From: Alphaproteobacteria bacterium
GTDB lineage: Bacteria; Pseudomonadota; Alphaproteobacteria; Acetobacterales; Acetobacteraceae
Assembly (NCBI GenBank): GCA_026400845.1
Contig: JAPLOH010000053.1
Coordinates: 40,411-104,410, forward strand
DNA: 64,000 nt
Direction: 5' to 3'
The notes under the pieces were generated by a model that ran no database searches, was not told the DNA's origin, and saw nothing but the letters and a program-made list of their open reading frames with translations. The number at the start of each line of letters is the position of its first letter. Positions within the stretch are counted from its first letter, which is position 1. The position numbers and the translations under genes were made by a program. Shown in pieces: positions 4,862 to 63,708 of the stretch.

Positions 4862-5467
4862 TCAATCCCGCGGCAGCCGCCTGGGCAGCAGCTTCATCGG
4901 CTTCCCCTCCGAATTGGGGTACCACAAGATCGCCTCGCGCTCCTTGCGCGTAAGCCGCTTCGGTTTGGTCGAGACCTTCTTCGACCGCGGCGTGCGCGGG
5001 CGGCGCGGCAACGGCGGGACGCAGGCGACATCGATGTTGAGAAGCCGGAACATCGGGCGCAACACGCGCTGCGCCTCGGGCGAGGCCGCGACGATTGCGG
5101 CAACCTCCGGGCGGTTCATCTGATAAGCCAATTGCGCGGTGAACCCCACAACCTCCCAGCCGAGAAACCCGACCCAGCCCTTGGTGCGCGGAAACGCCGG
5201 GCGCGGCCCCACAGGCGGCTTGCGCACCGCTCCAGCGCGGGACTTGCGCTTGCGGAACACCTCCCCCGCCGCAATCCGCACCATCACCCGCTCGAACCGC
5301 CGCACGCCCCCGATCAGATAATTCCACACCGCCGGGCCGTGCCCATAGTTCCGATGGCCGATGAGCTTGGTGCCCATCATGCGCAGAAGACTCGCCATGA
5401 TACGCACCACCAGCGCCGCCACTTCGGCGTGCAGGGTGGACGCGGGGGGAGGAGTGCAAACTATCAT
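4862..5467 (-). CDS. conserved hypothetical protein with a Lys/Arg/Pro-rich C-terminus
   Basis: 201-aa ORF with GC-rich third positions. No recognisable catalytic motif. The start codon is uncertain because there are several in-frame Met codons. Confidence 0.5.
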   Translation of the reverse strand: MIVCTPPPASTLHAEVAALVVRIMASLLRMMGTKLIGHRNYGHGPAVWNYLIGGVRRFERVMVRIAAGEVFRKRKSRAGAVRKPPVGPRPAFPRTKGWVGFLGWEVVGFTAQLAYQMNRPEVAAIVAASPEAQRVLRPMFRLLNIDVACVPPLPRRPRTPRSKKVSTKPKRLTRKEREAILWYPNSEGKPMKLLPRRLPRD

Positions 5468-5518: not shown

Positions 5519-5570
5519 GGAAGCGGTTCTTTCTTGAAAAAAGAACCGAAAAACTTTTGCCACAGTTTCG
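5519..5570. repeat. solo arm (half copy A) of the nested-palindrome repeat family
   Basis: ggaagcggttctttcttgaaaaaagaaccgaaaaacttttgccacagtttcg. It contains the local hairpin ggttcttt/aaagaacc. It is an imperfect inverted repeat of 9003-9055. Confidence 0.8.
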
Positions 5571-5657
5571 ATCGACGTTCCGCTCGCAAAGTGCGGGGGC
5601 GGGGCTTGACGCGGAGTGGGACTGGAACGAGTTTCATCCCGCAACAAGGCAACCATA

Positions 5658-6575
5658 ATGGACCTCCAGCGCAGGGAACTCCGCGACGACCTGAACCGCA
5701 TGCGTGGATCGCGCGACGCCATTCTGCGCGCGCGGGGAGACAACGTCGCATTCGAGGAAAACGTATCCGCCGCACGGACGGCGGGATTCGAGGCGGCAAC
5801 GGCGCGACAGTCGAGTTTGCAGGCGGCGCTCGCCTATTACTTCGACCGGAGCGTGCAGGGCGAGGCGAAAACCCATGTGCCGTCCACGTTTTCGGCGGAG
5901 AATGACCTGGCCCTGCTGCCACCCGGCGTGGCGGGCAACCAAAAAATCATCCGGATCGAATGCCTCGACGACTGGCAGCGGGAGAGCTGGTTCAGTTTCA
6001 CCAAGCTCGAAGCCGCAGTACAGCCGGACAGGCGCGATGCCAGCGTGATAGAGCCGAATATCCGCCGCCTGAACGCGTTCGCCGGCGCGCGGCCGGCCTA
6101 TGCGGCGTTCAAATCGGAAGTGTCGACCGACCTCGGCCTGCCCGATTGGTTCGAGCGGCTGGTAGCGCGGCTCGGGCTTGGCCATTTTGCCGTCGCGCGA
6201 GAGGACGTGCGGTATTTCGCGCTGATGGAGTATCTGGCGCGCGACGTGATTGCGGGAACGTCGATTGAACGGCCATTCGCCAAACCCACCTTATTGGAGG
6301 CGCGCGGCAACGAGTACTTCTTCCCGGCGCCGCGCGGCGAGGACTTCGGCTTCACCGCGGACCTCGCGCCGGAAACAGGGCGTGACGCGGTGCGTGAATT
6401 CCTCCATGCTCGGTTAAGCTACACGGCGGATCATATGGTCCGGGTCTATCGTTTGGCGGGGCCTACGGCATCGGTGCGGCTGAGCGCGGTGCGGGATGCG
6501 CATTTGCGCCATGTCCGGGCGCGGTCGGGGCGGGCGGATTTTGGCGCCTTCATGGCGGACGAGGTGGATGAGTAG
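5658..6575 (+). CDS. hypothetical protein (first gene of the repeat-bracketed cassette)
   Basis: Track ORF 5616..6575. The likely start is ATG 5658 (MDLQRRELRDDLNRM). The N-terminus is charged and coiled-coil-like. No known motif was recognised. GC-rich third positions. The stop overlaps the next ORF's start (atgagtag). Confidence 0.55.
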   Translation: MDLQRRELRDDLNRMRGSRDAILRARGDNVAFEENVSAARTAGFEAATARQSSLQAALAYYFDRSVQGEAKTHVPSTFSAENDLALLPPGVAGNQKIIRIECLDDWQRESWFSFTKLEAAVQPDRRDASVIEPNIRRLNAFAGARPAYAAFKSEVSTDLGLPDWFERLVARLGLGHFAVAREDVRYFALMEYLARDVIAGTSIERPFAKPTLLEARGNEYFFPAPRGEDFGFTADLAPETGRDAVREFLHARLSYTADHMVRVYRLAGPTASVRLSAVRDAHLRHVRARSGRADFGAFMADEVDE

Positions 6576-7224
6576 CGCGGCTTCAATCGACCGGATGGAT
6601 GGCACGGGACGGCACCCATGGCTGGCAGCACTGGTCGCGTCGCCGGCAGAGGAGGTGCGCGCGCTGATCGAGCTGTACGCCGAGGTACACCCCTATGGGC
6701 GGGCGGAGCCGGGCGATGCGGCGCACGCGCTGCTGTTCGGACTGGCGGGCGACGATCCGGCGCGGGCGGCGCTCGACGCCGGCTGTGGCGCGGTGTTGCT
6801 GGCTTTGCGGGCGGAGATGGATCGGGGGGACGCAGCAGAGTATCCGCGGGCGGCGATGCTGGCGTTGCGACTGCTGACCGTGATCCGCCGGCTACGGCCG
6901 GCGCAAACCGTGCGGGACCTGCATCGGCGCTACATGTTCTGGTTCGCGGTGTTCGAAACGGCAGCACTCGATGACGGTCTTGACGTGCGGCGGGAGTTCC
7001 TGCGGGTTCTGGCGCTGACGCAGGATATGGCGGAGACCACCGCACCGCGCCGGCTGATGGCGCTGTGGCTGGACGTCTGCGCCGAAGCCGGGCCAAACGG
7101 GCAGTATGACCCGAGCTATCTCGATGTCGGGCTCAGCGGACTGCGGGATTTGCCGCTGGCGGCCGAGCATGACGCCAACGAGGAGGCGATGTGCCACGGC
7201 ATCGCGCGCTGGGCGGTGCGGTAG
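6568..7224 (+). CDS. hypothetical protein, possibly the N-terminal part of a larger TPR protein interrupted by an in-frame TAG
   Basis: ATG 6568 (MSSAASIDRMDG) overlaps the upstream stop. The ORF ends at TAG 7222-7224. The same frame continues with coding-like sequence into ORF 7309..8916. Confidence 0.5.
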   Translation: MSSAASIDRMDGTGRHPWLAALVASPAEEVRALIELYAEVHPYGRAEPGDAAHALLFGLAGDDPARAALDAGCGAVLLALRAEMDRGDAAEYPRAAMLALRLLTVIRRLRPAQTVRDLHRRYMFWFAVFETAALDDGLDVRREFLRVLALTQDMAETTAPRRLMALWLDVCAEAGPNGQYDPSYLDVGLSGLRDLPLAAEHDANEEAMCHGIARWAVR

Positions 7225-7308
7225 CGGCCGGAACAGGCGCAGTTCCTGGCGCGGTGGCGCGAGATCGAGAGCGCGTATCCGCGCAGCTCGGAATTCTGGC
7301 CCAAGCTG

Positions 7309-8916
7309 GTGCAAGAGGTGATCGGGGCGACTGAAAAGTGGCTCGGGGCCGAGGCCGGGGCGGGGCGGACATTTCCGGCCGCGGCATGGTGGTTGCCCCG
7401 CCAACGCCTGGTCCTGGCGCACGAAAAGCCCGGACGGCGGCCCTCCGCGGGTAGGTTCCAGCGCACCTCGTCACCGCCGCCGGCGGAGCGGCGCAAGACG
7501 CTTTTGCGCGAGATCGCGAAACCGCTGGATCAGCTTCGGGCGCCAATCGAGCGGCTGATGGCGGATCTTCGGCGCCATGCCGAGGCGACGGGGGAGACCT
7601 ATGACTGCGTTCGTACCGCATGCAATGTCGGCATGCGGTTGTTGGAGAGCGGGCCGGGGGGCGAGCGTGCCGCCCGCGGCGTGGTTGCGGCAGAGTTGGG
7701 GCGGATGGTGCTCGGGTTCGAACCGCACAATCCTTTCGCCTGGGCACTGTGGCGCGATGGGCTGGAGGCACAGGGGGCACTGGCGGCAGCGGAGGAGGTC
7801 GGCTGGGAGGCGCTTCGGCGCTACCCGGAGAACCCGCAGTGGCGCACCCAATTGGCGACGGTGCTGGTGCATGCCGGTCGGGCCGACGAGGCGGCGGCTC
7901 TGTTGCGGGAGACGATAGCACTGTTCCCGGGCAATGTGATCGCACGCAACCAGTTGGCAATCGTCTTGGGGGAGCGGCTCGGCGATCCGCAGGGAACGGC
8001 CGGGCTGTTGCGGGAGATGATAGCGCTGTTTCCGGGCGATGCGCCGGCACGCAACCAGTTGGCGACGGTGCTTGCGAGGAGGTTGAGCGATCCCCAAGGG
8101 GCGATAGCCGTGCTGGAGGCGGCGATCGCGGCGCTATCCACCGACGCCTATACATATAATTTCCTCGCGATCCTGATGAACAATACGCGGGGGGATCGTG
8201 CTGGTGCGGCGACGGTGCTGCGTGCGGGGCAGGCGGCCGGGTTGGCTGACGAGGTTACGGCGGAGCTGCAGCAGCAGCTGCACGAAGGGCGTCGTCAGCT
8301 GCGTCACCAGTCGACGCGAGCGCCGCAGGCGACCGGCCTTGCAGTGACAGCCGCGGCGGCGGTTCAGTTTGACCTATCGCGTGAGTTCACGGATCCAGCT
8401 CAGGCGACCGGCGTTGCCGTACCAGAAGCCGCGGCCCAGGTCGACTTGCCCGACGCGCGAGCGCGGCGGGCGTTGTTCCGCGCCGAGTGCGGGGATGACC
8501 GGGCGGCGGGGCTGGCGGAGGTGCGGCGGTTGCTCGATGAGGATGGGGCGTCGGCCTATACGCGGTATGTGGCGCGGCGGACGGGCGTGGTTTCGGGCGA
8601 CGGCATGGGGCATGTGTTTGCCTATGCTTTCGATCGGGCGGCCCAGGCGGGGTCCGGCGCGGCGCTGCGGGCGTTGCTGGACCATGCGCAGGGGGCGGAT
8701 CGCTATGTCGTGCGATCGGCGCAGGCGCTGATGGCGGGCGATGCCGAGTCGCCTGCGGTGTTGGGGGCCAATGATATCGACGCCGGTTCGGCGCTGCGGC
8801 GGTTTGCTGGTGTGGCGGGGACGATCAATGGGGCGTTGCGCGGCGGGCACGCGGATCATTCTGCGATGCTGCGGCTGCTGCGCGACTTCGCTGCCGCGGA
8901 GTTGTCGGCCGCGTGA
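7309..8916 (+). CDS. tetratricopeptide-repeat protein (same frame as 6568..7224, so possibly one disrupted gene)
   Basis: 535-aa ORF with TPR-like repeats (LLRETIALFPGNVIARNQLAIVLGERLGDPQG / LLREMIALFPGDAPARNQLATVLARRLSDPQG). The 84 nt between the TAG and the first listed start also show GC-rich third positions. Confidence 0.6.
   Translation: MQEVIGATEKWLGAEAGAGRTFPAAAWWLPRQRLVLAHEKPGRRPSAGRFQRTSSPPPAERRKTLLREIAKPLDQLRAPIERLMADLRRHAEATGETYDCVRTACNVGMRLLESGPGGERAARGVVAAELGRMVLGFEPHNPFAWALWRDGLEAQGALAAAEEVGWEALRRYPENPQWRTQLATVLVHAGRADEAAALLRETIALFPGNVIARNQLAIVLGERLGDPQGTAGLLREMIALFPGDAPARNQLATVLARRLSDPQGAIAVLEAAIAALSTDAYTYNFLAILMNNTRGDRAGAATVLRAGQAAGLADEVTAELQQQLHEGRRQLRHQSTRAPQATGLAVTAAAAVQFDLSREFTDPAQATGVAVPEAAAQVDLPDARARRALFRAECGDDRAAGLAEVRRLLDEDGASAYTRYVARRTGVVSGDGMGHVFAYAFDRAAQAGSGAALRALLDHAQGADRYVVRSAQALMAGDAESPAVLGANDIDAGSALRRFAGVAGTINGALRGGHADHSAMLRLLRDFAAAELSAA
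7900..8109 (+). repeat. tandem 105-bp (35-codon) duplication inside the TPR gene
   Basis: Units start at 7900 and 8005 (ctgttgcgggaga(c/t)gatagc(a/g)ctgtt(c/t)ccgggc...). They encode two near-identical TPR-like units. Confidence 0.75.
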
Positions 8917-8976
8917 TTGCTGTTTTGCGGGCGCTCGGCGGGGAGTGATTGCGGGGTGGCGGCGCCCTCACCCCGG

Positions 8977-9055
8977 CCCTCTCCCGCAAGGACGGGAGAG
9001 GGGGAAGCAAGTGGAAAAGTTTTTTGCTTCTTTTTTTCAAAAAAGAAGCGCTTCC
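8977..9055. repeat. centre hairpin plus arm (half copy B) of the nested-palindrome repeat family
   Basis: Hairpin ccctctcccg-caagga-cgggagaggg (8977-9002), followed by ggaagcaagtggaaaagttttttgcttctttttttcaaaaaagaagcgcttcc (9003-9055). Confidence 0.8.
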
Positions 9056-9137: not shown

Positions 9138-10412
9138 TCAGGTGTTCATAGCATCAAAGAAATCCTGATTGGTTTTGCTGTATTTCAGCTTGTCCAGCAG
9201 GAAGTCCATCGAATCCATTGGCCCCATCGGGTTGAGGATGCGGCGCAGCACCCACATTTTGCTCAGCGTGCCGCGATCGACCAGGAGTTCTTCCTTGCGG
9301 GTGCCGGATTTGGTGATGTCGATGGCGGGGAAGGTGCGTTTGTCCGACAGTTTGCGATCGAGGATGATTTCGCTGTTACCGGTGCCTTTGAACTCTTCGA
9401 AGATCACTTCGTCCATGCGGCTGCCGGTGTCGATGAGGGCGGTGGCGATGATGGTCAGCGAGCCGCCTTCCTCGATGTTGCGCGCCGCGCCGAAGAAGCG
9501 TTTGGGGCGTTGCAGGGCGTTGGCGTCGACGCCGCCGGTGAGGACTTTGCCGGAGGAGGGGACGACGGTGTTGTAGGCCCGGGCGAGGCGGGTGATGCTG
9601 TCGAGCAGGATCACCACGTCACGCTTGTGTTCGACCAGGCGCTTGGCTTTTTCCAGCACCATTTCGGTGACGGCGACGTGGCGGGTCGGCGGTTCATCGA
9701 AGGTGGAGGCGACGACTTCGCCTTTCACGGTGCGCGACATGTCGGTGACTTCCTCGGGCCGCTCGTCGATGAGCAGGACCATGAGGAAGACTTCGGGGTG
9801 GTTGTTGGCGATCGCGGTGGCGATGTTTTGCAGCATCACGGTTTTGCCGGTGCGCGGGGGGGCGACGATCAGCGCGCGCTGGCCCATGCCGATGGGGGCG
9901 ATGAGGTCGATCACCCGGGGCGTCATGTCCTTCTGCGGGCCTTTGGCGACGGACTGGAAGTTCTCCATTTCCATCTTGAGGCGGCGATCGGGGTAGAGCG
10001 GCGTGAGGTTGTCGAAGTTGATGCGGTGCTTCACCGGGTCGGGCGGGTCGAAGTTGATGGTGTTGAGTTTGAGCAGGGCGAAGTAGCGCTCGCCGTCCTT
10101 GGGCGCGCGGATCTGGCCTTCGACGCTGTCGCCGGTGCGCAGCGCGAAGCGGCGGACCTGGGAGGGCGAGACGTAGATATCGTCGGGGCCCGGGAGGTAG
10201 TTGCTTTCGGCGCTGCGCAGGTAGCCGAAGCCGTCGGGCATGATTTCGAGCGTGCCGGAGCCGAAGACGCTGTGCTCGGCCTCGGCGAGGTTTTTCAGGA
10301 TCGCCACCATCATGTCCTGCTTGCGCAGGGAGGAGGCGTTCTCGATGTTGAGGGATTCGGCGAAACCCAGGAGTTCTGCCGGTGGTTTTGCCTTGAGTTC
10401 GGCGAGATGCAT
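9138..10412 (-). CDS. rho: transcription termination factor Rho
   Basis: 424-aa ORF. N-terminal [33 protein letters not shown], Walker A (PPRTGKT), full-length Rho-like sequence. Confidence 0.97.
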
Positions 10413-10718
10413 TCGGTCGCCTCAAACATGCCGACGGGCAGGGCCGGTCGGACAGGGGGGATAAGGGGCAGGTTCGAGCGGAATTGGATGGCTCGGTTGC
10501 TGTCCTCGGATCGCGCGGTCCGCGGGGCGGAACGATCGAATAATCGGCGAGGGCAGCACTGTCCCGGAGGGGAGGGGGTCGATCGCGCTTCCAGGGGAGA
10601 GGACGCGAATACGCGCTCGAACACCAATACGGTAGGCGGCGGCGGCCACCGCGTCAACCACCGCATGCACCACGCGACGTTGCATGGCGGTGCGGTCGGC
10701 CGCTAGGCTGCCGATCAA
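10413..10718 (-). promoter_or_regulatory. rho 5' leader/promoter region, C-rich on the transcribed strand (rut-like)
   Basis: The plus strand carries G runs (gggcagggccgg, caggggggataaggggcagg, ggaggggaggggg, ccaggggagagg). The rho-sense RNA is therefore C-rich and G-poor. Confidence 0.3.
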
Positions 10719-10769
10719 ATGCGACGGATTAACCTGATCGCAACATCCGATGGTACAGGGGAAACGCCA

Positions 10770-11519
10770 ATGTCCGGCGCCGGAACGGCACCACTTCAGG
10801 CCAGTGTCGCGATTATCGGGGCTGGGGACTATATCGGGGCAGCGATTGCCCGGCGGTTCGCCGCCGGTGGCTATCTCGTCGTGTGCGGCAGACGCAATGC
10901 AGAGAAGCTTGAACCGCTGGTCGCCGAGATCAACGCGGCGGGTGGACGGGCGATCGGGCTGAAATGCGATACGCGCGTGGAGGCGGAGGTCGCGGAGTTC
11001 CTCGACGCCGCGCATGCCGCGGCGCCGCTGGCAGCGGTGATTTTCAACGTCGGGGGGAATGTGAACTTCCCCATCCTGGAGACCACCGAGCGGGTGTTCC
11101 GCAAGGTGTGGGAGATGGCGTGCTACGGGGGATTCCTCGCCGGGCGGGAAGCGGCGCGGCTGCTGTTGCCACAGGGCCGCGGCAGCATCATCTTCACCGG
11201 CGCCACCGCGAGCCTGCGGGGCGGCAGCGGCTATGCGGCGTTTGCCTCCGCCAAGTTCGGCCTGCGGGCGATCGCGCAGAGCATGGCGCGTGAGTTGGGG
11301 CCGCAGAACATCCATGTCGCGCATCTGGTGATCGATGCCGGCGTCGATACCGCCTGGGTGCGCGAGCGGATCGCCGCGCGCGGGGCGACCGAGCGGCTCG
11401 AGCCCGGGCATCTCGTCGATCCCGCCTCGATCGCCGAGGTCTACTGGCAGTTGCATCACCAGCCGCGCGACGCCTGGACCCATGAGCTCGATGTCCGTCC
11501 TGCGTTGGAGAAATGGTGA
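10770..11519 (+). CDS. SDR family oxidoreductase
   Basis: Track ORF 10719..11519. The likely start is ATG 10770 (MSGAGTAPLQASVAIIGAGDYIGAAIA). Rossmann glycine motif and an SDR-type YxxxK region (YAAFASAKFG). Confidence 0.8.
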   Translation: MSGAGTAPLQASVAIIGAGDYIGAAIARRFAAGGYLVVCGRRNAEKLEPLVAEINAAGGRAIGLKCDTRVEAEVAEFLDAAHAAAPLAAVIFNVGGNVNFPILETTERVFRKVWEMACYGGFLAGREAARLLLPQGRGSIIFTGATASLRGGSGYAAFASAKFGLRAIAQSMARELGPQNIHVAHLVIDAGVDTAWVRERIAARGATERLEPGHLVDPASIAEVYWQLHHQPRDAWTHELDVRPALEKW

Positions 11520-11524
11520 CCGGC

Positions 11525-12130
11525 ATGCGTCCCGTTGAGTTCCACTTCGATTTCGGCAGCCCCAACGCCTATCTGGCACACCGGGTGATCCCGGCGATCG
11601 AAGCGCGGACCGGCGTGCGGTTCCGCTACGTGCCGGTGCTGCTGGGCGGCGTGTTCCGCGCCACCAATAATCGCTCGCCCGGGGAAGCTTTCGCCGGTAT
11701 CCGCAACAAGCCGGAGTATCAGCGGCTGGAGATGCAGCGCTTCATCGCGAGGCACGGGCTCACCGCGTTCCGCCGCAATCCGTATTTCCCGGTGAACACG
11801 CTGCAGATCATGCGCGGCGCGGTGGCGGCAGAGGCGGATGGCTATTTCGCGGCCTATGTCGAGGCGGTCTACCGCGCGATGTGGGAACAGGAGCTGAAGA
11901 TGGACGAGCCCCACATCATCACGGCGGCACTCGATGCCGCCGGGCTCGATGGTGCGCGGACGCTCGCCCGGATCGGGGATGCCGGCGTGAAAGCGGCGCT
12001 GATCGCCAATACGGAAGCCTCGGTCGCCCGCGGCACCTTCGGTTCGCCGACCTTCTTTGTCGGGGAGGAAATCTGGTTCGGCAAGGACAGCCTCCGCGAT
12101 GTCGAGGAGGCGATCCTCGCCGGCCGCTAG
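11525..12130 (+). CDS. 2-hydroxychromene-2-carboxylate isomerase / DsbA-family protein
   Basis: MRPVEFHFDFGSPNAYLAHRV is the typical HCCA-isomerase/DsbA-like N-terminus. About 200 aa. Confidence 0.75.
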   Translation: MRPVEFHFDFGSPNAYLAHRVIPAIEARTGVRFRYVPVLLGGVFRATNNRSPGEAFAGIRNKPEYQRLEMQRFIARHGLTAFRRNPYFPVNTLQIMRGAVAAEADGYFAAYVEAVYRAMWEQELKMDEPHIITAALDAAGLDGARTLARIGDAGVKAALIANTEASVARGTFGSPTFFVGEEIWFGKDSLRDVEEAILAGR

Positions 12131-13098
12131 GCGGCGCGGAGTGCCGCCCCGGCGAGCCGCCCGCCGAGATACTCCGCCAGCGCGCCCATGCCGGAGCGGT
12201 TGGTGCCGCTGATGCCGGCCCGGGATTCCGCGTCGGGGTTGTAGTTGGTGTTGGTGTTCACGTCGTAGACCAGCGGCCCGCCATCTGGCCCGGTGATGAA
12301 CTCGATCCCGGCGACGTCGATCCCGGCGATCTCCAGGAACGCTTCGAGCTGACGGCGGAAGCCGGGTTCGATGCCGTCAATCACGGTGAACTTGTGTTCC
12401 GGCCGGCCCTCCACTTCCCCCACAGGGCAGGCGGCCTCGCCGATCGCGCAGACATCGGCGGGGCAGAGTTCGAACCCCTCGCTGGTGTCGACCTCCACCG
12501 CGTAGGTGAAGCGCCGGCCGGTGAATTCGGCGCGGGTGATCACCGGGCGCGGCGCGCGGATATAGGCCTGGAGCAACTGGATGCCGTCGACCGGTTCGAC
12601 GTAGCCATCCCCAGCCACGTAGTCGCGCAGCCCCGCAATGGTGTGGAAGAGTTGCACGCCATGGCCCTTGCCGCCGCGGTTGGGTTTGAGGATCACGGGT
12701 TCGCCGGCGAAATAGCGTTCGGCCGCCGCGACGATCTCATTGCGCCCGGCGACCACGACGGTGCGCGGAGTATGCAGCCCGGCGGTTTCCAGCGCGGCGT
12801 ATTGGCGAACCTTGCTGATTTCGAGATCGAGCGCCCGCGGGCCATTCACCACCACACGGCCCCAGCGGGTCAGCCACGCCAGCACACTCGCTGTGTACTC
12901 GGCGGAGAAACGATGATCGCGGGTGTGCGAACTCGCGCTCATGCGGTTGTAGAATACGCCTTCCGGCGGTGGGGCAGCAAAGTCGATCGCGCCGGTGTGG
13001 AGGAACATCTCCGCCCAAGGGAGTCCGCGCCGGTCCAGTGCCTCGGCAAGCGGAGGCAGCCAGGCGGGGTTTTCGTGGATGACATGGATGCGGCTCAT
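12127..13098 (-). CDS. ATP-grasp domain protein (RimK-like ligase family)
   Basis: 323-aa ORF with an ATP-grasp-like core (PVILKPNRGGKGHGVQLF ... GIEFI ... VYDVNTNTNY). Confidence 0.7.
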   Translation of the reverse strand: MSRIHVIHENPAWLPPLAEALDRRGLPWAEMFLHTGAIDFAAPPPEGVFYNRMSASSHTRDHRFSAEYTASVLAWLTRWGRVVVNGPRALDLEISKVRQYAALETAGLHTPRTVVVAGRNEIVAAAERYFAGEPVILKPNRGGKGHGVQLFHTIAGLRDYVAGDGYVEPVDGIQLLQAYIRAPRPVITRAEFTGRRFTYAVEVDTSEGFELCPADVCAIGEAACPVGEVEGRPEHKFTVIDGIEPGFRRQLEAFLEIAGIDVAGIEFITGPDGGPLVYDVNTNTNYNPDAESRAGISGTNRSGMGALAEYLGGRLAGAALRAA

Positions 13099-13286
13099 GG
13101 TTTGGGTCCCGCCGGTCTGGCGGTTCGGCTTGAGCGCCGGCGCCGCTGGTCAGGCGCAAAAATGAGGTGTCCGGCTTGTTGTGTAAATGAAATGGAGACC
13201 CAAAGAATCAGCCCACAACAGTGGTTCCATGCTCCCGGAGCGTTCCCAGAGAGAATTCTGTTCTCACCGGGATATCTGGGGGTGAT

Positions 13287-13733
13287 TCAGCCTTCGCCGG
13301 GTCGCCGTGTCCGCCACATCTGGGTGCGCAGATCGGGATGCGGGCCGAAGCCGAAGCTGGCGTAGAGGCCGTGCGCGTCGTCGGTGCTGAGGCTCCAGCG
13401 ACTGATGGTTTGCACGTCTGGATGCGCTAAAATCGCCGCCATCAGCGCCTTGCCAAGACCGCGGCCGCGATGGGCCGGCAACACGTAGACGTCGGAGAGA
13501 TGGGCCGCGGTGGTACGGTCGGTGACGAGACGGGCGAAGCCGGCCTGGCTGCCGTCGGGCGCATAGAGGCCGAAGCAGAGGGAGTTGGCCAGTGCGCGCT
13601 CGACGGTCGCCCGGTCACGCCCACGGGCCCAGTAGCTGTCCTCGCTGATGAACCGATGGATCGACGCTATATCGAGGCGGTCCTGTGCGTCGCTGATCTC
13701 GTAGCCATCAGGGAGGGCAACGCGATAGGGCAT
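13287..13733 (-). CDS. GNAT family N-acetyltransferase
   Basis: Track ORF 13287..13931. The likely start is the ATG overlapping the hemJ stop (MPYRVALPDGY). Acetyl-CoA binding motif (VLPAHRGRGLGKALM). Confidence 0.75.
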   Translation of the reverse strand: MPYRVALPDGYEISDAQDRLDIASIHRFISEDSYWARGRDRATVERALANSLCFGLYAPDGSQAGFARLVTDRTTAAHLSDVYVLPAHRGRGLGKALMAAILAHPDVQTISRWSLSTDDAHGLYASFGFGPHPDLRTQMWRTRRPGEG

Positions 13734-14185
13734 CAGAATGGCCGCACGATCACCATGATGACGATGACGAACATCAGCAGGGTCGGGACTTCGTTGGCGA
13801 TGCGGTAATAGCGCTGCGGCCGGGTGTTGCGGTCCTCCATGAAGTCGCGCCGCCAGACCACGAGTTTCCCGTGAAACGCACTCATTGCCAGCACACCAGC
13901 GAGCTTCACCCAGGGCCAGATACTCGACCAATCGATCACGCCGGGGGTCAGCACCAGCAGCAGGCCGAAAATCCAGGTCGCGATCATCGCGGGGTTGATG
14001 ATCTGCTTCAGCAGGCGCCGCTCCATCACTTTCATGCGTTCGCTCTCGGCGCTGCCGGGGTGGACCATGCAGTGATAGACGAAAAGGCGCGGCAGATAGA
14101 ACATGCCGGCCATCCAGGCGATCACGCTCATCACGTGGAACGCCTTCACCCAGAGATAGGTGTGGGCGAGGAACCCGAGGGTCAT
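13733..14185 (-). CDS. hemJ: protoporphyrinogen IX oxidase HemJ (UPF0093/CopD-like membrane protein)
   Basis: 150 aa, multi-TM. FHVMSVIAWMAGMFYLPRLFVYH fits the HemJ family pattern. Located in the hemE-hemH cluster. Confidence 0.8.
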   Translation of the reverse strand: MTLGFLAHTYLWVKAFHVMSVIAWMAGMFYLPRLFVYHCMVHPGSAESERMKVMERRLLKQIINPAMIATWIFGLLLVLTPGVIDWSSIWPWVKLAGVLAMSAFHGKLVVWRRDFMEDRNTRPQRYYRIANEVPTLLMFVIVIMVIVRPF

Positions 14186-22632: not shown

Positions 22633-22759
22633 GGAAGCGCTTCTTTTTGAAAAAAGAAGCAAAAACTTTTTATCCGCTCGCTCCGCGCTCGCCGTGATAA
22701 GCGTAGCGCTAAACCGATAAAAGTTTTTTGGTTCTTTTTTTCAAAAAAGAACCGCTTCC
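22633..22759. repeat. full copy C of the nested-palindrome AT-rich repeat element (~127 bp)
   Basis: Left arm ggaagcgcttctttttgaaaaaagaagcaaaaactttt, a centre, and right arm aaaagttttttggttctttttttcaaaaaagaaccgcttcc. The arms are inverted repeats and each holds its own hairpin. Confidence 0.9.
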
Positions 22760-25700
22760 TACTGCTACCGCCACCGGATAACTGACCATACCAAGCACCA
22801 GGTCGATCTCCAACCGCGCCGCCCGCGTTTGGGCCGGCAGAGTGAGCACCGCACGGCCGTTGGTCCAGCGCATCATCCCTTCACAAGCGTGCAGCCCCGC
22901 TGCGCCATCGAGCGGCAGTGTCGTGCCGGCGAAGCGGACCGCAGCGATGGCGACGCCGAGGCGGCGGCGATCGTCGCGACCAGGGTCGATCTCGTGCGGC
23001 ACCGCGGCACGCGAGGTGAGCACGACCTCGGTTGTGCCGGGGGGAACCAGGGCGACCACGCGATCCCCGCTGGCATCCTGGCGCGTGAGGGCCTGCCCGC
23101 CAGCATGGAGTTCCACCGCCGGATCGTCCTCGCGCCGGTAACCGAGGGCGGCGGCTCGCACGGCCAGCCCTGCCCGGGCGGCGGTGAGCGCGGCGCCACC
23201 GAGGGTCAGCGGCAGGCAGGCGCGCTCGTCCCAGCCGCGTGCCGAGAGGCCCGCGAGCAGATCGGGGTGCAGGGGGCGCTCGCCCGGTCCGCTGGCGAAC
23301 AAGCCACGATTGCCGGTATCGAGATAGCTCTCCGCTGGTAGCCCCTCGGCCAGCAGCAGGTCATGCGTATCAAGCTCGACATGCCAGTAGGTGATGCCGC
23401 CCTCGGTTGGTTCGCGTCGCACGGTCATGCCGTTGGCGAGGAGATAGGCCGGCACCAGCGATGCTCCAGTCCACACCGCATGGTCGGGCGAGACGACGAG
23501 GTCGCGATGCGGCAACCCGGGCCCGAAAGCGTCGGCGGCGATCCGCACCGGTGCCACCTTCGCGGGGTCGGCGTGGCGGTCGAGATCGATCCGCGTGCTC
23601 CCGGTCCAGACGATGCGCCGCAGCCGGCCGCCGTTGGCCACCGGCACCAGGTCACCGACACGCAGCGCCTCGACGCGACGCTCGCCGGCGATGGTGAGGA
23701 TGCGTGTGCCCTGGGCAAAACACGGCGCGGCGTCGTTGGAGAAGACGACGATGCCGGTGCCGGCACCGTCCGTCGACGCAGCGAAGCCCCCCGGGTGAAA
23801 GCCGGTGACGAAGAACTGCACCGCGCCGGAATTGGTGGTGAGGTTGACCGTCCCGCCGGTCGTGGGGTCGGTGTTGGCCGTGTAGCTGATCGGGTTGCCG
23901 CCGGGAAAGCCCGCGTTAAGGAAGTCGATCCGGTTGTTCGACGGGCCGAGGCCGTAGAAATCGCTGACCGTGCCATGGAAAGTGATTGGACTGGTGACCC
24001 GGATGAACTCCGGGGCAGTTGGCGTGATGCCGAGATTGCCGGTGCCGAAGTCGAACCGTGCCGAGATCGGCAGCCCGTTGTCGAGTTGCAGCACCGACGA
24101 TGGCGAAAGTTTGAACATGCCGCTGCCCGCCAGCACGGCATTGATTTCCAACGTCGCTCCGCCTTGGCTCAGCGTGCCATTGCTGGTCAGCCCGCCGGCA
24201 AGAACGGTGCCGTCGTTGCGCAGCGTGCTGTCGATGCTGTTGACGATGATCATCCCGGCGCCCTGCACCATCGCACCGCTGGCGACGACGAATTCACCGA
24301 AGACCGGCATGGTGTTGCCGATGGTGAGCTGGCTGGCGCTGAGGTTGATGGTCGAACCCTGCCAGATGTCGAGCGTGCCCGCCGTTGCGGTGAGTGCGCC
24401 GCCGCCATTGATGGAAAGCACCCCGCTCGAGGCACCCTTGAGCAGGAATGGAGTGGTTGCGATGGTGCCGTTGTTGAGCGCGAGCAGGCCACCGAGGTAG
24501 ATGCCGCCGGTCACCTGGGCAAAGGCGCCGCTGCTGATGTTGAGGGTACCTTGGGAATCACGGCCGATAACGAGATCGCCGTCGTCGATCAGGCTGCCGC
24601 CGGACTGGATGTTGACCACGCCGGAGGTAGCGCCCACCGTGCCGCTGCGATTGCCGATCGACAGGCCATAGCCGATATCGGTGATGCCGGCCGCCGCGCC
24701 GACCAACACCGTGCCACCATTGCCGACCGAAAGCGTACCGTTGCTGCGTTGCCCGACGATCAGCGGGCCGCCGCCGGTGTCGAGCAGCGCGCCGCGGCCC
24801 TGGACGAAGACCGCGCCGGCCGCCGCCGTGTTGGCAGTGCTGCCGCCGCCGATGATCATCTTGGCGGTGTTGAACAATTCGCCGGTGCCGAGCTGTACGA
24901 CGCTGGAATTGACGCTGAGCGTGCCGGTGCCGCCGGCGCCAACGGTGAGCCATGGCAGGTTGCTCGACCACAGCGTCGCCGAGCCGGTGATGGTGTTGCC
25001 GACCACGATCGAGCCGACTGGCGTTCCCCCCCCTTGGCCGATGTTCCAATGGGCGTTGTTGTCGAGCGATACCGTGCCGCTCGAGCCGAAGGAGGCGCCG
25101 ATCATGGCGAAGGAGGCATCGTTCAGCGTCGCCCCGCTTTGGACCGACACCGACCCGGCGCCGCCGGAGACGAAGCCGATCGTCCCCAGGGCGTTGACCG
25201 ACAAATTGCCGCCGCCGACCAGCATGCCGCCGGACAGCGGCGTTGAGGCATCCCCGCCGGCATCGGTGTAGACCGTGTGCGCCCCGGCGATATAGAGGCT
25301 GGAGGCCGAACTGTTCGCGCCGGTTTGGAAAGCGCCGCCGATCTGGGTGTAGGTCGCGGTCACGCTGGCGCTCAACGTGCCGTAGACCGTCGATGTCTGG
25401 GTCTGCGAGACAATGTCGTTGGACACGTTGAAACCTGCGCTCGCATTGGTCCCGATGCTGATGTTGCCAGCCGATGCGATGGTTCCGGCGGTGTTCTGCG
25501 CGTAACCCTCGAGCCCGAGCCCGAGCTGCCCGCCGCCCAGCGCGAATGGGAGGGCACCGCCGATAGCCAACTGGCCGCCTGGCTCGAGAGTGAGCTGGGC
25601 ATCGGTGGAAAGGTACAAGCGAGTAGTCGTCAGCGTTCCACCGGCGGCGATGTCGATCTTGCCGTCTACGGCGGCGAAGGCGCCGCCGGTACCTTGTCCG

Positions 25701-27190
25701 GTCAGGTCACTCACCATCAGCGGCGCGGAGAGCGTAAGTGCCGCGAACGGGTCGGCGAGCGAGACCGAACCCGCGGTTTGCGGGCTCGTGACGGAGAGAA
25801 CGTAGTTGGTGAACACGCCATTGTTCGCCGCGGCGGCCTCGGCGGCGGACAGCGAGATTTGTGCCGTCTGGTACTGTCCGGGGATGCCCCCGGCGCCGCT
25901 GCCGTGGGTCCAGTTGGCGGCCGACCAGTCGGTGGTCGCGCCATTGGTGACGCCGCCCCAGCTCGCCAGGGTGCCGGTCACCGCAACGGTGGTGCCGGCG
26001 TTGACGACGTTCTGGCTGTTGCCGAGGGTGATCAGGGTGTCGCTGCCAGCGCTGACGAGCTTGAAGTTGCCGCTCGCCGCACCGTCGATCGTGCCGGTAC
26101 CCGGCACCAGGCTGGCGGCTTGGAATCGGATGCGGGCGACCTCGCTGGTGCCGCGGTTGATCGTCAGCACGTCGTTCCCGTAATTGGCATCGGCGCCGTA
26201 GCTATAGGTCAGGCCAACCGGATTGACGCCGACGAGCTGGATGGTGTCGCCAGGCTGGAAACCGGTGGAGCGCGCGAAGAAGTTCTGCAGCACCGTGGTG
26301 GTGAGCGTGGTGCCGGCGTTCACGACGTTGAAGTTGGACGGCAGTACGAAATTGGACTCGAGCTTCAGCAAACCATTGCTGTCACTGAAATTGATGAGCT
26401 GGGCGCCCGGCATATTGGTTTTGACGTCCAGCGTCGCGCCATGGGTTTCGCCGAGCAGGCTTATGAGGCCGGATTCAGAGTTCATCCGCGCATTGAGCTG
26501 ATCGACCGCCGCGCCTTGGGCGCCTTCGAGCAGCATGAACGCGCCGTTGGAGAACCGCGTGCTCGTGTTGCTGTCGCCGTTGATAGTGACTGTACCGCCG
26601 AAATTAAGGATGGCGCCTTCCGAACCGAAATACCCGGCGATGGTGCCAAGCTGGCTGACGTTGATTGTCAGGTTGCCGCCGGGTTGCACCCAGAATTGCG
26701 CGTCGCTGTTAACGACTCCGGTTGCATTGACCACCAGGGTCTCGGCCGTGCCAGCTTGGCGAATGGCGAAGTCGCCGCTGTTTTGCACCAGTTGCAGCGT
26801 GCTGAGGGCGCTGCCGGTGAGGTTCAGCACGGCATTGTCGCCCAGCGTGAAGGACGAAGAATCGATATAGCTGTCGGTGATATTGAAGACGAAGCCCTGG
26901 CCTACCGCGGCGCCATCGCCGGCCGTCACCAGGCTCGACACCATGGTGACGTTGTTGAAGGTGACGGTGTCGAAGGCTCCAGCTACCTGCAACGTATTGC
27001 TGCTGATTGTCTGTGCGGTGCCGGGCTGGCCGATGAGGTCCATCGCCACCGAGCTGCCAAGAGAGCCGGCGCCGATGATGATGGTGTCGAAGGGCTGCGG
27101 CATGATCCCACCGACCCAGTTCAACGGATCGGTGGCGTCGTTGATGTCGGTATGCAGGCTCGACTTGCCGATCCAGGTCACCGTCGCCAT
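22709..27190 (-). CDS. large beta-helix-repeat protein with a C-terminal Hint (Hedgehog/intein-like) domain
   Basis: Track ORF 22709..27214. The likely start is ATG 27190 (MATVTWIGKSS), preceded by aaggaa. About 1150 aa of Gly/Thr/Ser/Asn-rich autotransporter-passenger-like repeats. The Hint module starts at CFAQGTRILT (Cys codon 23720-23722) and includes SPDHAVW and THDLLLAEG. A further 197 aa of unknown sequence follow. Confidence 0.85.
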   Translation of the reverse strand: MATVTWIGKSSLHTDINDATDPLNWVGGIMPQPFDTIIIGAGSLGSSVAMDLIGQPGTAQTISSNTLQVAGAFDTVTFNNVTMVSSLVTAGDGAAVGQGFVFNITDSYIDSSSFTLGDNAVLNLTGSALSTLQLVQNSGDFAIRQAGTAETLVVNATGVVNSDAQFWVQPGGNLTINVSQLGTIAGYFGSEGAILNFGGTVTINGDSNTSTRFSNGAFMLLEGAQGAAVDQLNARMNSESGLISLLGETHGATLDVKTNMPGAQLINFSDSNGLLKLESNFVLPSNFNVVNAGTTLTTTVLQNFFARSTGFQPGDTIQLVGVNPVGLTYSYGADANYGNDVLTINRGTSEVARIRFQAASLVPGTGTIDGAASGNFKLVSAGSDTLITLGNSQNVVNAGTTVAVTGTLASWGGVTNGATTDWSAANWTHGSGAGGIPGQYQTAQISLSAAEAAAANNGVFTNYVLSVTSPQTAGSVSLADPFAALTLSAPLMVSDLTGQGTGGAFAAVDGKIDIAAGGTLTTTRLYLSTDAQLTLEPGGQLAIGGALPFALGGGQLGLGLEGYAQNTAGTIASAGNISIGTNASAGFNVSNDIVSQTQTSTVYGTLSASVTATYTQIGGAFQTGANSSASSLYIAGAHTVYTDAGGDASTPLSGGMLVGGGNLSVNALGTIGFVSGGAGSVSVQSGATLNDASFAMIGASFGSSGTVSLDNNAHWNIGQGGGTPVGSIVVGNTITGSATLWSSNLPWLTVGAGGTGTLSVNSSVVQLGTGELFNTAKMIIGGGSTANTAAAGAVFVQGRGALLDTGGGPLIVGQRSNGTLSVGNGGTVLVGAAAGITDIGYGLSIGNRSGTVGATSGVVNIQSGGSLIDDGDLVIGRDSQGTLNISSGAFAQVTGGIYLGGLLALNNGTIATTPFLLKGASSGVLSINGGGALTATAGTLDIWQGSTINLSASQLTIGNTMPVFGEFVVASGAMVQGAGMIIVNSIDSTLRNDGTVLAGGLTSNGTLSQGGATLEINAVLAGSGMFKLSPSSVLQLDNGLPISARFDFGTGNLGITPTAPEFIRVTSPITFHGTVSDFYGLGPSNNRIDFLNAGFPGGNPISYTANTDPTTGGTVNLTTNSGAVQFFVTGFHPGGFAASTDGAGTGIVVFSNDAAPCFAQGTRILTIAGERRVEALRVGDLVPVANGGRLRRIVWTGSTRIDLDRHADPAKVAPVRIAADAFGPGLPHRDLVVSPDHAVWTGASLVPAYLLANGMTVRREPTEGGITYWHVELDTHDLLLAEGLPAESYLDTGNRGLFASGPGERPLHPDLLAGLSARGWDERACLPLTLGGAALTAARAGLAVRAAALGYRREDDPAVELHAGGQALTRQDASGDRVVALVPPGTTEVVLTSRAAVPHEIDPGRDDRRRLGVAIAAVRFAGTTLPLDGAAGLHACEGMMRWTNGRAVLTLPAQTRAARLEIDLVLGMVSYPVAVAVGSGSFLKKRTKKLLSV

Positions 27191-27283
27191 GGTCGTTTCC
27201 TTCATGCACTTCACACGAAGTTTACCGGGCGGTTAGTCTACGTCAAGGAATTGTAAGGATGGGCTAATAATTCCCGTGCCGGC

Positions 27284-34730: not shown

Positions 34731-34858
34731 GAGCAAGCGCTTCTTTTTGAAAAAAGAAGCAAAAACTTTCTATCCGTTTGCTCCGCACGCCCCACGGAGA
34801 GAGCGGAGCAAACGGAGGAAAGTTTTTTGGTTCTTTTTTACAAAAAAGAACCGCTTCC
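34731..34858. repeat. full copy D of the nested-palindrome repeat element
   Basis: gagcaagcgcttctttttgaaaaaagaagcaaaaactttc, then the palindromic centre ccgtttgctccgc...gcggagcaaacgg, then aaagttttttggttcttttttacaaaaaagaaccgcttcc. Confidence 0.9.
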
Positions 34859-40335: not shown

Positions 40336-40411
40336 AATAGGGGCCTTGATCCGCGCGCCAAGGGGAGGCTATATGCGCCCTCTTCGCGACCCAAGGCGAA
40401 GTTTGCGATGT

Positions 40412-40487
40412 GGGGCCATAGCTCAGCTGGGAGAGCGCCTGAATGGCATTCAGGAGGTCAGCGGTTCGATCCCGCTTGGCTCCACCA
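40412..40487 (+). tRNA. tRNA-Ala (anticodon GGC)
   Basis: 76-nt cloverleaf folded by hand. Acceptor stem ggggcca/tggctcc with the G3:U70 alanine identity pair. Anticodon loop a-t-GGC-a-t. T-loop ggttcgatc. Encoded 3' CCA. Confidence 0.95.
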
Positions 40488-63584: not shown

Positions 63585-63708
63585 GGAAGCGCTTCTTTTT
63601 GAAAAAAGAAGCAAAAACTTTTTATACGTTGCTTCGCGCTCTCCCCGGGGAGAGCGAAACAACGTGGACAAGTTTTTTGGTTCTTTTTTTCAAAAAAGAA
63701 CCGCTTCC
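63585..63708. repeat. full copy E of the nested-palindrome repeat element
   Basis: ggaagcgcttctttttgaaaaaagaagcaaaaactttt, then the palindromic centre acgttgcttcgcgctctcccc/ggggagagcgaaacaacgt, then aagttttttggttctttttttcaaaaaagaaccgcttcc. Confidence 0.9.

Follow-up and report, generated by a model that had tools for sequence, protein, structure and literature searches.

We describe here a locus in a 64,000-nucleotide stretch of DNA (the window) from an Acetobacteraceae metagenome-assembled genome (MAG; assembly GCA_026400845.1, contig JAPLOH010000053.1, forward-strand positions 40,411 to 104,410), in which two partial copies of a palindromic intergenic repeat are separated by 3.4 kb containing only co-directional open reading frames (ORFs). 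The repeat is a non-autonomous, mosaic palindromic element of the kind represented by bacterial interspersed mosaic elements (BIMEs) and REPINs (hairpin-forming doublets of repetitive extragenic palindromic, or REP, sequences), and the ORFs form an operon, an accessory gene pair unrelated to the repeat. We judge it slightly better than an even chance that the arrangement arose by simple insertion of a segment carrying the operon into one pre-existing copy of the repeat. The features concerned are, in window coordinates:

22633–22759, forward strand: full element, copy 1, in a spacer between convergent genes
34731 (34733)–34858, forward strand: full element, copy 2, in a tandem spacer
63585–63708, forward strand: full element, copy 3, in a tandem spacer; nearest relative of the presumed split copy
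5519–5558, forward strand: part-copy A, a lone arm of the GGTTC/GAACC type with the hairpin GGTTCTTTCTT-G-AAAAAAGAACC; profile score 36–46
5559–5573, forward strand: possible inner-stem remnant beside arm A, GCCACAGTTTCGATC; weak
8977–9002, forward strand: centre hairpin of the element, CCCTCTCCCG-CAAGGA-CGGGAGAGGG
9003–9055, reverse strand: part-copy B, inner stem GGAAGCAAGTGG and an arm of the GCTTC/GAAGC type, with its outer end towards rho
5571–8976, forward strand: candidate 3406-bp insert, comprising a leader, a two-gene operon and a tail with its own hairpin
5606–5610: TTGAC box in the 87-nt insert leader
5658–6575, forward strand: ORF1, 305 aa, member of an uncharacterised alpha/beta protein family (from homologues and AlphaFold)
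6568–8916, forward strand: gene for a tetratricopeptide repeat (TPR) partner, about 782 codons, comprising ORF2 and ORF3 (a single frame; from homologues)
7222–7224, forward strand: in-frame TAG in place of a conserved Gln codon, CAG (from the homologue alignment)
8953–8958 and 8969–8974: GC hairpin, GGGGTG and CACCCC, in the 60-nt insert tail
9138–10412, reverse strand: rho (Pfam Rho_RNA_bind, Rho_N and ATP-synt_ab), with the element following its 3′ end
4862–5467, reverse strand: gene for a 201-aa hypothetical protein on the other side of the presumed split element; no Pfam or PHROG match

The three full copies and the two part-copies had been picked out in a preliminary description of the sequence, and all are confirmed at those positions: the arm pattern has 4 matches (its core 12), as against 0.00 expected from dinucleotide-preserving shuffles, and the arms that an iterated profile detects in the 64 kb number exactly 8. 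The left arm of a full copy reads GGAAGCG-CTTCTTTTT-G-AAAAAAGAAG-CAAAAACTTTT and is followed by a variable GC-rich centre, and the right arm is the inverse of the left but with GGTTC/GAACC; each full copy is predicted to fold as one long hairpin, at −55 to −69 kcal/mol. Part-copy A occupies the spacer from which the 201-aa gene and ORF1 diverge, with its outer end to the left and its inner end towards ORF1, and departs from the family consensus by three private substitutions or indels. Part-copy B is 82 nt away from the stop codon of rho, in a convergent spacer, and its arm is identical to a variant present in several other genomes; the arm at 9015–9055 is equally readable as a right arm with two compensatory substitutions. 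The arms at 5519 and at 9015–9055 face inwards and are of opposite types.

When the two pieces are read in the orientation of a canonical copy, B, as the reverse complement of 9055–8977, supplies the left arm, the left inner stem CCACTTGCTTCC and the whole centre hairpin, and A, as the reverse complement of 5570–5519, supplies CGAAACTGTGGC and then the right arm. Joined, they form a 131-nt sequence whose alignment with eight canonical copies runs from one end to the other, with no segment missing or duplicated except for a centre loop that is 8 nt longer; it folds like a canonical copy (−67.7 kcal/mol). The best local matches of B and A are to the left and the right half, respectively, of copy 3; the centre hairpin at 8977–9002 is homologous to the centre of copy 3 (CGCTCTCCCC GG GGAGAGCG), and the inner stem of B shares 10 of 12 positions with its left-hand counterpart in copy 3 (p 0.03–0.07). 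Deletion of 5571–8976 leaves the rho stop codon, 82 nt, the element, 51 nt and the next gene, which is a typical tandem spacer, and in L134 (L-numbers denote compared genome stretches), whose Rho is 84% identical, a full element directly follows the rho stop codon. Divergent spacers are a rare setting for the family, holding 8 of 70 unpaired arms, and arm A is in one of them. Elements of the family can be split by insertions, for which L009 (3729–6515, accession OZ240673.1) serves as a positive control: an IS66-like insertion sequence (IS) with terminal inverted repeats GTAATTGCTCACCCCGGG and an 8-bp target duplication TTTGCTTC splits an element inside its right arm, and an IS630-like fragment is present there as well.

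On this account the spacer 3′ of rho would once have held one ordinary copy of about 130 bp, with two heterotypic AT-rich arms and a GC-rich centre hairpin. A self-contained 3.4-kb segment, 5571–8976, would have entered at the base of the centre hairpin, bringing its own leader, promoter-like box, two-gene operon and 3′ hairpin and displacing the right arm by 3.4 kb; the partner gene now carries a premature TAG. The likeliest routes would be capture during the repair of a break in a fragile palindrome, or recombination by way of the short repeated arms.

A number of results weigh against such an insertion, and several of them are what we would expect if the two pieces were independent fragments, namely a lone arm on the promoter side of the operon and a half-element serving the convergent 3′ ends of rho and the TPR gene, with an operon that was already there or arrived by any route and a split appearance that is coincidental; this we hold to be a serious alternative, at a good deal less than an even chance. 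The putative junctions of 5571–8976 have no target duplication, and the insert has neither terminal inverted repeats nor a mobility gene, unlike L009. Its GC content is only mildly high, at 0.682 where the window averages 0.662 ± 0.014, which ranks it in the top 6% of 3.4-kb windows. The inner half-stem that had been described beside the arm at 5519 is statistically indistinguishable from the family background: it comes closest to the right inner stem of copy 3, GTTTCGATC versus GTTTCGCTC, with 8 of 9 positions alike (p ~0.10). Because this remnant is weak, the statement that nothing is missing from the join rests on about 12 poorly supported bases; that the pieces rebuild one canonical element thus stands as an end-to-end alignment, but partly depends on the remnant. 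Arm A is also more decayed than arm B. The imperfect inverted repeat of about 52 bp between the two pieces is likewise present, but it follows from shared family membership and alone is no proof of one former copy. We dropped the CCAC beside both arms as evidence of a single split copy, since it belongs to the family inner consensus, and 37–61% of family inner sequences score equally well in the comparison of A with B. Unpaired arms are common, numbering 86–101 of the 421 arms (roughly a quarter) in a census of 918 kb of arm-bearing stretches and the window, made with an iterated arm profile, as against 160 full elements. Within 220 nt, about 70 of the unpaired arms have no detectable partner. 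Where unpaired arms adjoin one another, inward-facing pairs are only weakly in excess (+− 9, ++ 5, −+ 4, −− 3), and inward-facing pairs also surround housekeeping genes: metX/metW-like, hisC-like and tyrC-like genes in L067 and an rsmI-like gene in L070 (these names given by eye from translations), and leuS in L086. Searches anchored on Rho and on the 201-aa protein found no orthologous empty site in the order rho, element, 201-aa gene; the Rho-anchored relatives share the upstream hemE-hemH-hemJ-rho synteny, and the DNA 3′ of rho is unrelated in all that were found. A JGI metagenome scan gave no tblastn-confirmed relative of the 201-aa protein, which has paralogues as its nearest kin. Nevertheless, independent fragments would have to have come to lie next to each other across a single operon, with only five sites in the window, and in addition to face inwards, to carry heterotypic arms and to sum to exactly one element; the unusual spacer type of arm A and the fact that A and B each match best a different half of one canonical copy also speak against chance. 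When the rates at which true splits and chance look-alikes arise are roughly compared, insertion comes out ahead and is probable, although unproven. The proposal of an inserted cassette, one of two readings offered previously, retains the complementary halves, the heterotypic inward-facing arms and the typical spacer restored by deletion, but has neither an empty site nor a duplication behind it.

The other of those two readings, that the 3.5-kb unit is an autonomous, cargo-bearing parent mobilised by ORF1 and/or the TPR protein, with the 125-bp copies as its internal-deletion derivatives, is in our view very improbable. Its attractions are that the genes lie between inward-facing arms, as genes for REP-associated tyrosine transposases (RAYTs) do between REPs, that the fold of ORF1 is predicted with confidence and resembles none known, so that a new enzymatic activity is conceivable, and that in L214 an ORF1 homologue has a second element centre, of another sub-family, 145 nt upstream. 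We reject it because the operon is absent from arm-bearing loci, with homologues of ORF1 or of its partner in 0 of 120 (dozens of genomes, 918 kb, about 260 sites), and because it is present without arms in six other contexts (L001, L003, L005, L127, L213 and L216), with a different neighbourhood each time. Moreover, HUH/Y1, DDE and Ser/Tyr recombinase domains are absent from both proteins, a plain TPR solenoid is all that the partner amounts to, nonsense codons break the partner gene in two lineages, and an insertion is a more economical explanation than an internal deletion so exact that it restores the canonical centre; the ORFs as the repeat's own machinery are therefore not supported. A different role for the arms, as portable homology, seems unlikely, if somewhat less so: an operon lying between two repeats in a donor member of the Acetobacteraceae would have been swapped in by a double crossover within the 40-nt arms, and the flanking halves would be chimeric donor and recipient copies rather than one broken element. 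The arms are near-identical across genera, and at 40 nt they are in our judgement long enough for RecA-dependent exchange; a target duplication is absent, arm B is letter for letter a variant that is frequent elsewhere and is unlike the left arms of the three local full copies, and L214, from another genome, has the operon beside an element. A donor with arms flanking the operon on both sides has not come to light, however, the L214 contig ending inside its element, and the inner and centre sequences of B resemble those of the local copy 3. The window locus and L214 together hint that the palindromes could be preferred landing sites in Acetobacteraceae, integration hot spots throughout the genome where breakage or recombination at the hairpin would capture promoter-bearing operons of foreign origin, or that the ORF1/TPR pair is a hairpin-targeting mobile cassette, but we think there is little chance of either. 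Simple insertion into a single pre-existing copy is thus the explanation that we prefer.

The coding content of the segment was previously given as three ORFs, but the segment contains two genes. ORF2 (6568–7224) and ORF3 (7309–8916) lie in the same frame with one TAG, at 7222–7224, between them, and homologues that are single proteins of 690–760 aa align with 98% of the length of the combined partner gene; none of the 27 residues invariant in the family is lost on either side of the TAG. With the frame and the invariant residues intact, the break would be recent, polymorphic or an error: the TAG may have arisen by recent nonsense mutation, may vary within the population or may come from the assembly. 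The genes are co-directional, as had been described, with an 8-nt overlap of ORF1 and the partner gene (ORF2) that is also seen in relatives. We note that in L214 (1–160 and 1070–1400), which holds the second-closest ORF1 homologue (61% identity), the partner gene contains an independent in-frame TAA (VHP*GRAEP); this contig begins inside an element centre, CCCTGCTGTCGCGA, which matches more than ten full elements exactly over 12–14 nt. The TTGAC box recurs 48–55 nt upstream of the ATG in L213, L214 and L215, and in L127 an MNT/HepT pair adjoins the operon.

ORF1 has 59 close homologues, all annotated as hypothetical, and a profile search of 1.84 billion representatives yields 884 clusters at 50% identity (E ≤ 1e-3); among the best 150 of these 884 the matches are single stretches, mostly of about 300–340 aa. 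It has no match in Pfam, NCBIfam, PADLOC or PHROG, in the Protein Data Bank (PDB) by sequence profile search, or in plasmid and phage collections. Its AlphaFold model is confident, with a predicted local distance difference test score (pLDDT) of 94.5 and a predicted template modelling score (pTM) of 0.90, and Foldseek finds no fold relative in either PDB or BFVD (best E 0.4 and 0.16); pertussis-toxin S1 was considered as a fold relative and ruled out (probability ≤0.04, template modelling score ≤0.17). The invariant residues include R40, R145, R171, H176, Y192, E247, H250, R252, R279 and H282, and this set of Arg, His and Glu residues suggests that ORF1 may be an enzyme. ORF1 homologues are always paired with a TPR solenoid. 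The partner protein is an all-alpha TPR solenoid (the model of its homologue P0060 has a pLDDT of 91.7), for which Foldseek returns generic TPR scaffolds only, such as OGT and APC/C subunits. The earlier impression that only TPR repeats are recognisable, and that no HUH, DDE or Ser/Tyr recombinase motif is present, is borne out by profile and Foldseek searches: against Pfam, NCBIfam, PADLOC and PHROGs the ORFs give TPR repeats only, together with a sub-threshold match to Pfam TPR-S (E 3.4e-4), none of the three matches a PADLOC anti-phage model at E ≤ 1, and domain-library searches of both proteins find no HUH/Y1, DDE or Ser/Tyr recombinase signature. Neither N-terminus looks by eye like a signal peptide. 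The operon has hundreds of relatives in Alphaproteobacteria, with partner homologues in several Hyphomicrobiales lineages, including Xanthobacteraceae, Microvirga, Methylocystis, Rhodoplanes and Salinarimonas. Its patchy contexts, the MNT/HepT neighbour in L127 and the nonsense codons in two lineages lead us to the tentative guess that it encodes a cytoplasmic enzyme with a TPR scaffold or sensor, an accessory pair that is possibly conflict-related, though we would not rate this as likely.

The repeat itself is widespread in the family Acetobacteraceae. One scan of 185,579 species genomes with the arm sequence AAGCGSTTCTTTTTKRAAAAA finds it in at least 120 genome stretches, nearly all from MAGs of Acetobacteraceae/Rhodospirillales together with Acidiphilium, Acidocella and Rhodovastum, and the same arm 21-mer is conserved across genera. 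The 421 arms of the census include 160 inverted pairs of 85–300 nt, typically 115–150 nt. The 10-bp arm stem is 96.8% paired among 56 distinct arms, with 43 double-change cells; none of 500 shuffles reaches this level, and slid-register controls give at most two cells. Compensatory double changes occur at four of the ten stem pairs, the closing pair being C:G in 30 and G:C in 22, and the three others replacing U:A with C:G or G:C. The rule that the two arms of an element are of opposite types, first proposed for the window copies, proves to be real and general, since 126 of 145 full elements (87%) have heterotypic closing pairs, one arm of each type. Element centres are far more variable than the arms and fall into several sub-families, one of which has a GCTGTCGCGGAC motif.

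Element copies favour gene 3′ ends: full elements are present in 51 of 166 convergent, 72 of 425 tandem and 12 of 159 divergent spacers, with 12 inside ORFs, in a classification of spacers that rests on a crude gene finder based on GC content at third codon positions. A promoter role for lone arms was considered and ruled out, their orientation being unbiased relative to gene starts. The element stem ends in AAAAG/CUUUU followed by U6–7 on either strand, and most plausibly the element acts as a bidirectional terminator or 3′-end hairpin; a simple consensus terminator scan, which called none at the elements, counts against this. In the flanks of full elements from L007–L126 the palindrome reaches about 8 nt past the 41-nt arm model (left consensus RRGAAGNAA, right consensus TTNCTTYY), which makes the true element about 140–150 nt long. 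Target-site duplications, absent from the insert junctions, are also missing from the family at large, as 76 complete-ended full copies show no excess of 2–8-bp direct repeats at boundary offsets of −3 to +6; the sole peak, at offset −2, is the palindromic terminus itself. Genes near arms in the 918 kb include no recurrent transposase, the recurrent neighbours being ordinary metabolic and transport genes, and no RAYT gene lies near any copy in those 918 kb, a search that did not extend to whole genomes. We find no autonomous parent IS with matching ends, the other long pairs enclosing housekeeping genes or unrelated IS. The GTAG/CGTC tetranucleotide tag is absent, the arms starting with GGAAGC or GCAAGC. 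CGTC REPs have been reported to be missing from Acetobacteraceae (PMC3733652); this was the only relevant paper in the searchable literature, where queries with the arm sequence and for Acetobacteraceae repeats or miniature inverted-repeat transposable elements (MITEs) returned no description of the repeat.

Several individual copies deserve mention. In the window, a 1501-aa ORF (22709–27214, reverse strand) terminates within the right arm of copy 1, so that the repeat supplies about 17 terminal codons and the stop, and an ORF at 34827 starts within copy 2, with its true start probably further downstream. The complete Acetobacteraceae chromosome OZ240673.1 contains 79 arms in twelve 8-kb stretches (L009, L012, L013, L016, L021, L023, L033, L051, L071, L081, L098 and L105), a density that is an upper bound as the loci were picked for arms. 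At 950–1886 of L039, from Acidiphilium sp. PA, a lone arm provides the TTG start and the Lys/Arg-rich n-region (LKKRTKKLLL...) of a lipoprotein with the signal peptide LAGAVLLALSGC, and a second, inward-facing arm lies 3′ of the lipoprotein gene; this looks like exaptation into coding sequence. In L131 (11273–11410), 3′ of the rho gene of an 88%-identical relative, a stretch of about 130 nt is bounded by GAAGCAAGG...CCTTGCTTCC and may represent a second repeat family that shares its outermost termini with this one.

The 201-aa protein encoded beyond part-copy A belongs to a multi-copy family with at least seven paralogues in the same MAG, at 41–69% identity (NT133_03970, _05900, _16945, _09320, _09990, _12615 and _26875). 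The one homologue that we compared, in L210 (49% identity), has a nearly identical C-terminus, RLTRKEREAILWYPN.EGKPMKLLP..LPRD, and is preceded by a 66-aa gene. On the far side of rho, about 3.3 kb (10413–13732), with genes for an SDR (short-chain dehydrogenase/reductase), a DsbA-like protein and a hypothetical 323-aa protein, separates it from hemJ (13733–14185). In relatives hemE-hemH-hemJ are followed directly by rho after a gap of 190–430 nt, and the genome of the window therefore has extra DNA on both sides of rho. An Rfam scan of the whole window identifies one tRNA only, at 40412–40484.

The Acetobacteraceae thus contain an abundant and apparently undescribed mosaic palindromic repeat, with an arm shared across genera, a two-arm polarity rule and compensatory evolution of its hairpin. 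It breaks metagenome assemblies, and it could be used in studies of termination or topology, or as a strain marker. The locus described here may record the capture of a gene cassette in a repeat and, if this is general, would bear on how accessory genes enter these genomes. ORF1, with its 884 clusters, its confidently predicted fold without a structural relative and its TPR partner, is a reasonable target for functional work. No major concept is changed by these findings.

The repeat and its locus can be compared with several known systems. MITE-like repeats such as the Correia elements of Neisseria, ERIC/IRU of Enterobacteria and RIME of rhizobia are likewise imperfect palindromes of about 125 bp that are intergenic and can be co-transcribed with genes, some copies having internal insertions, and MITEs share the terminal inverted repeats in that the arms here are inverted repeats of each other; unlike MITEs, our element has no target-site duplication and no parent IS with matching ends, and its centre is far more variable than its arms. 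IS1397 and ISKpn1 in the loops of BIMEs, like the IS66-like insertion of L009, provide cases in which one repeat copy is parted by inserted DNA, but the insert in the window has no transposase, terminal inverted repeats or duplication and is an ordinary-looking two-gene operon. RAYT genes flanked by REPs also lie between inward-facing copies of a genome-wide palindromic repeat, whereas here there is no Y1/HUH domain and the gene pair is unlinked to the repeat in other genomes.

The BIMEs and REPINs of Enterobacteria and Pseudomonas share most with the repeat: short extragenic palindromes in inverted pairs of two types around a variable linker, with the two arm types comparable to Y and Z REPs, a high copy number, a preference for operon 3′ ends and convergent spacers, frequent single units, and a hairpin kept by compensatory change. 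The arms of the Acetobacteraceae element differ in being AT-rich 40-mers in a 66% GC genome, without the GTAG/CGTC tag, and its GC-rich centre hairpin belongs to the unit itself. The nearest known analogue is the BIME, or REP doublet.

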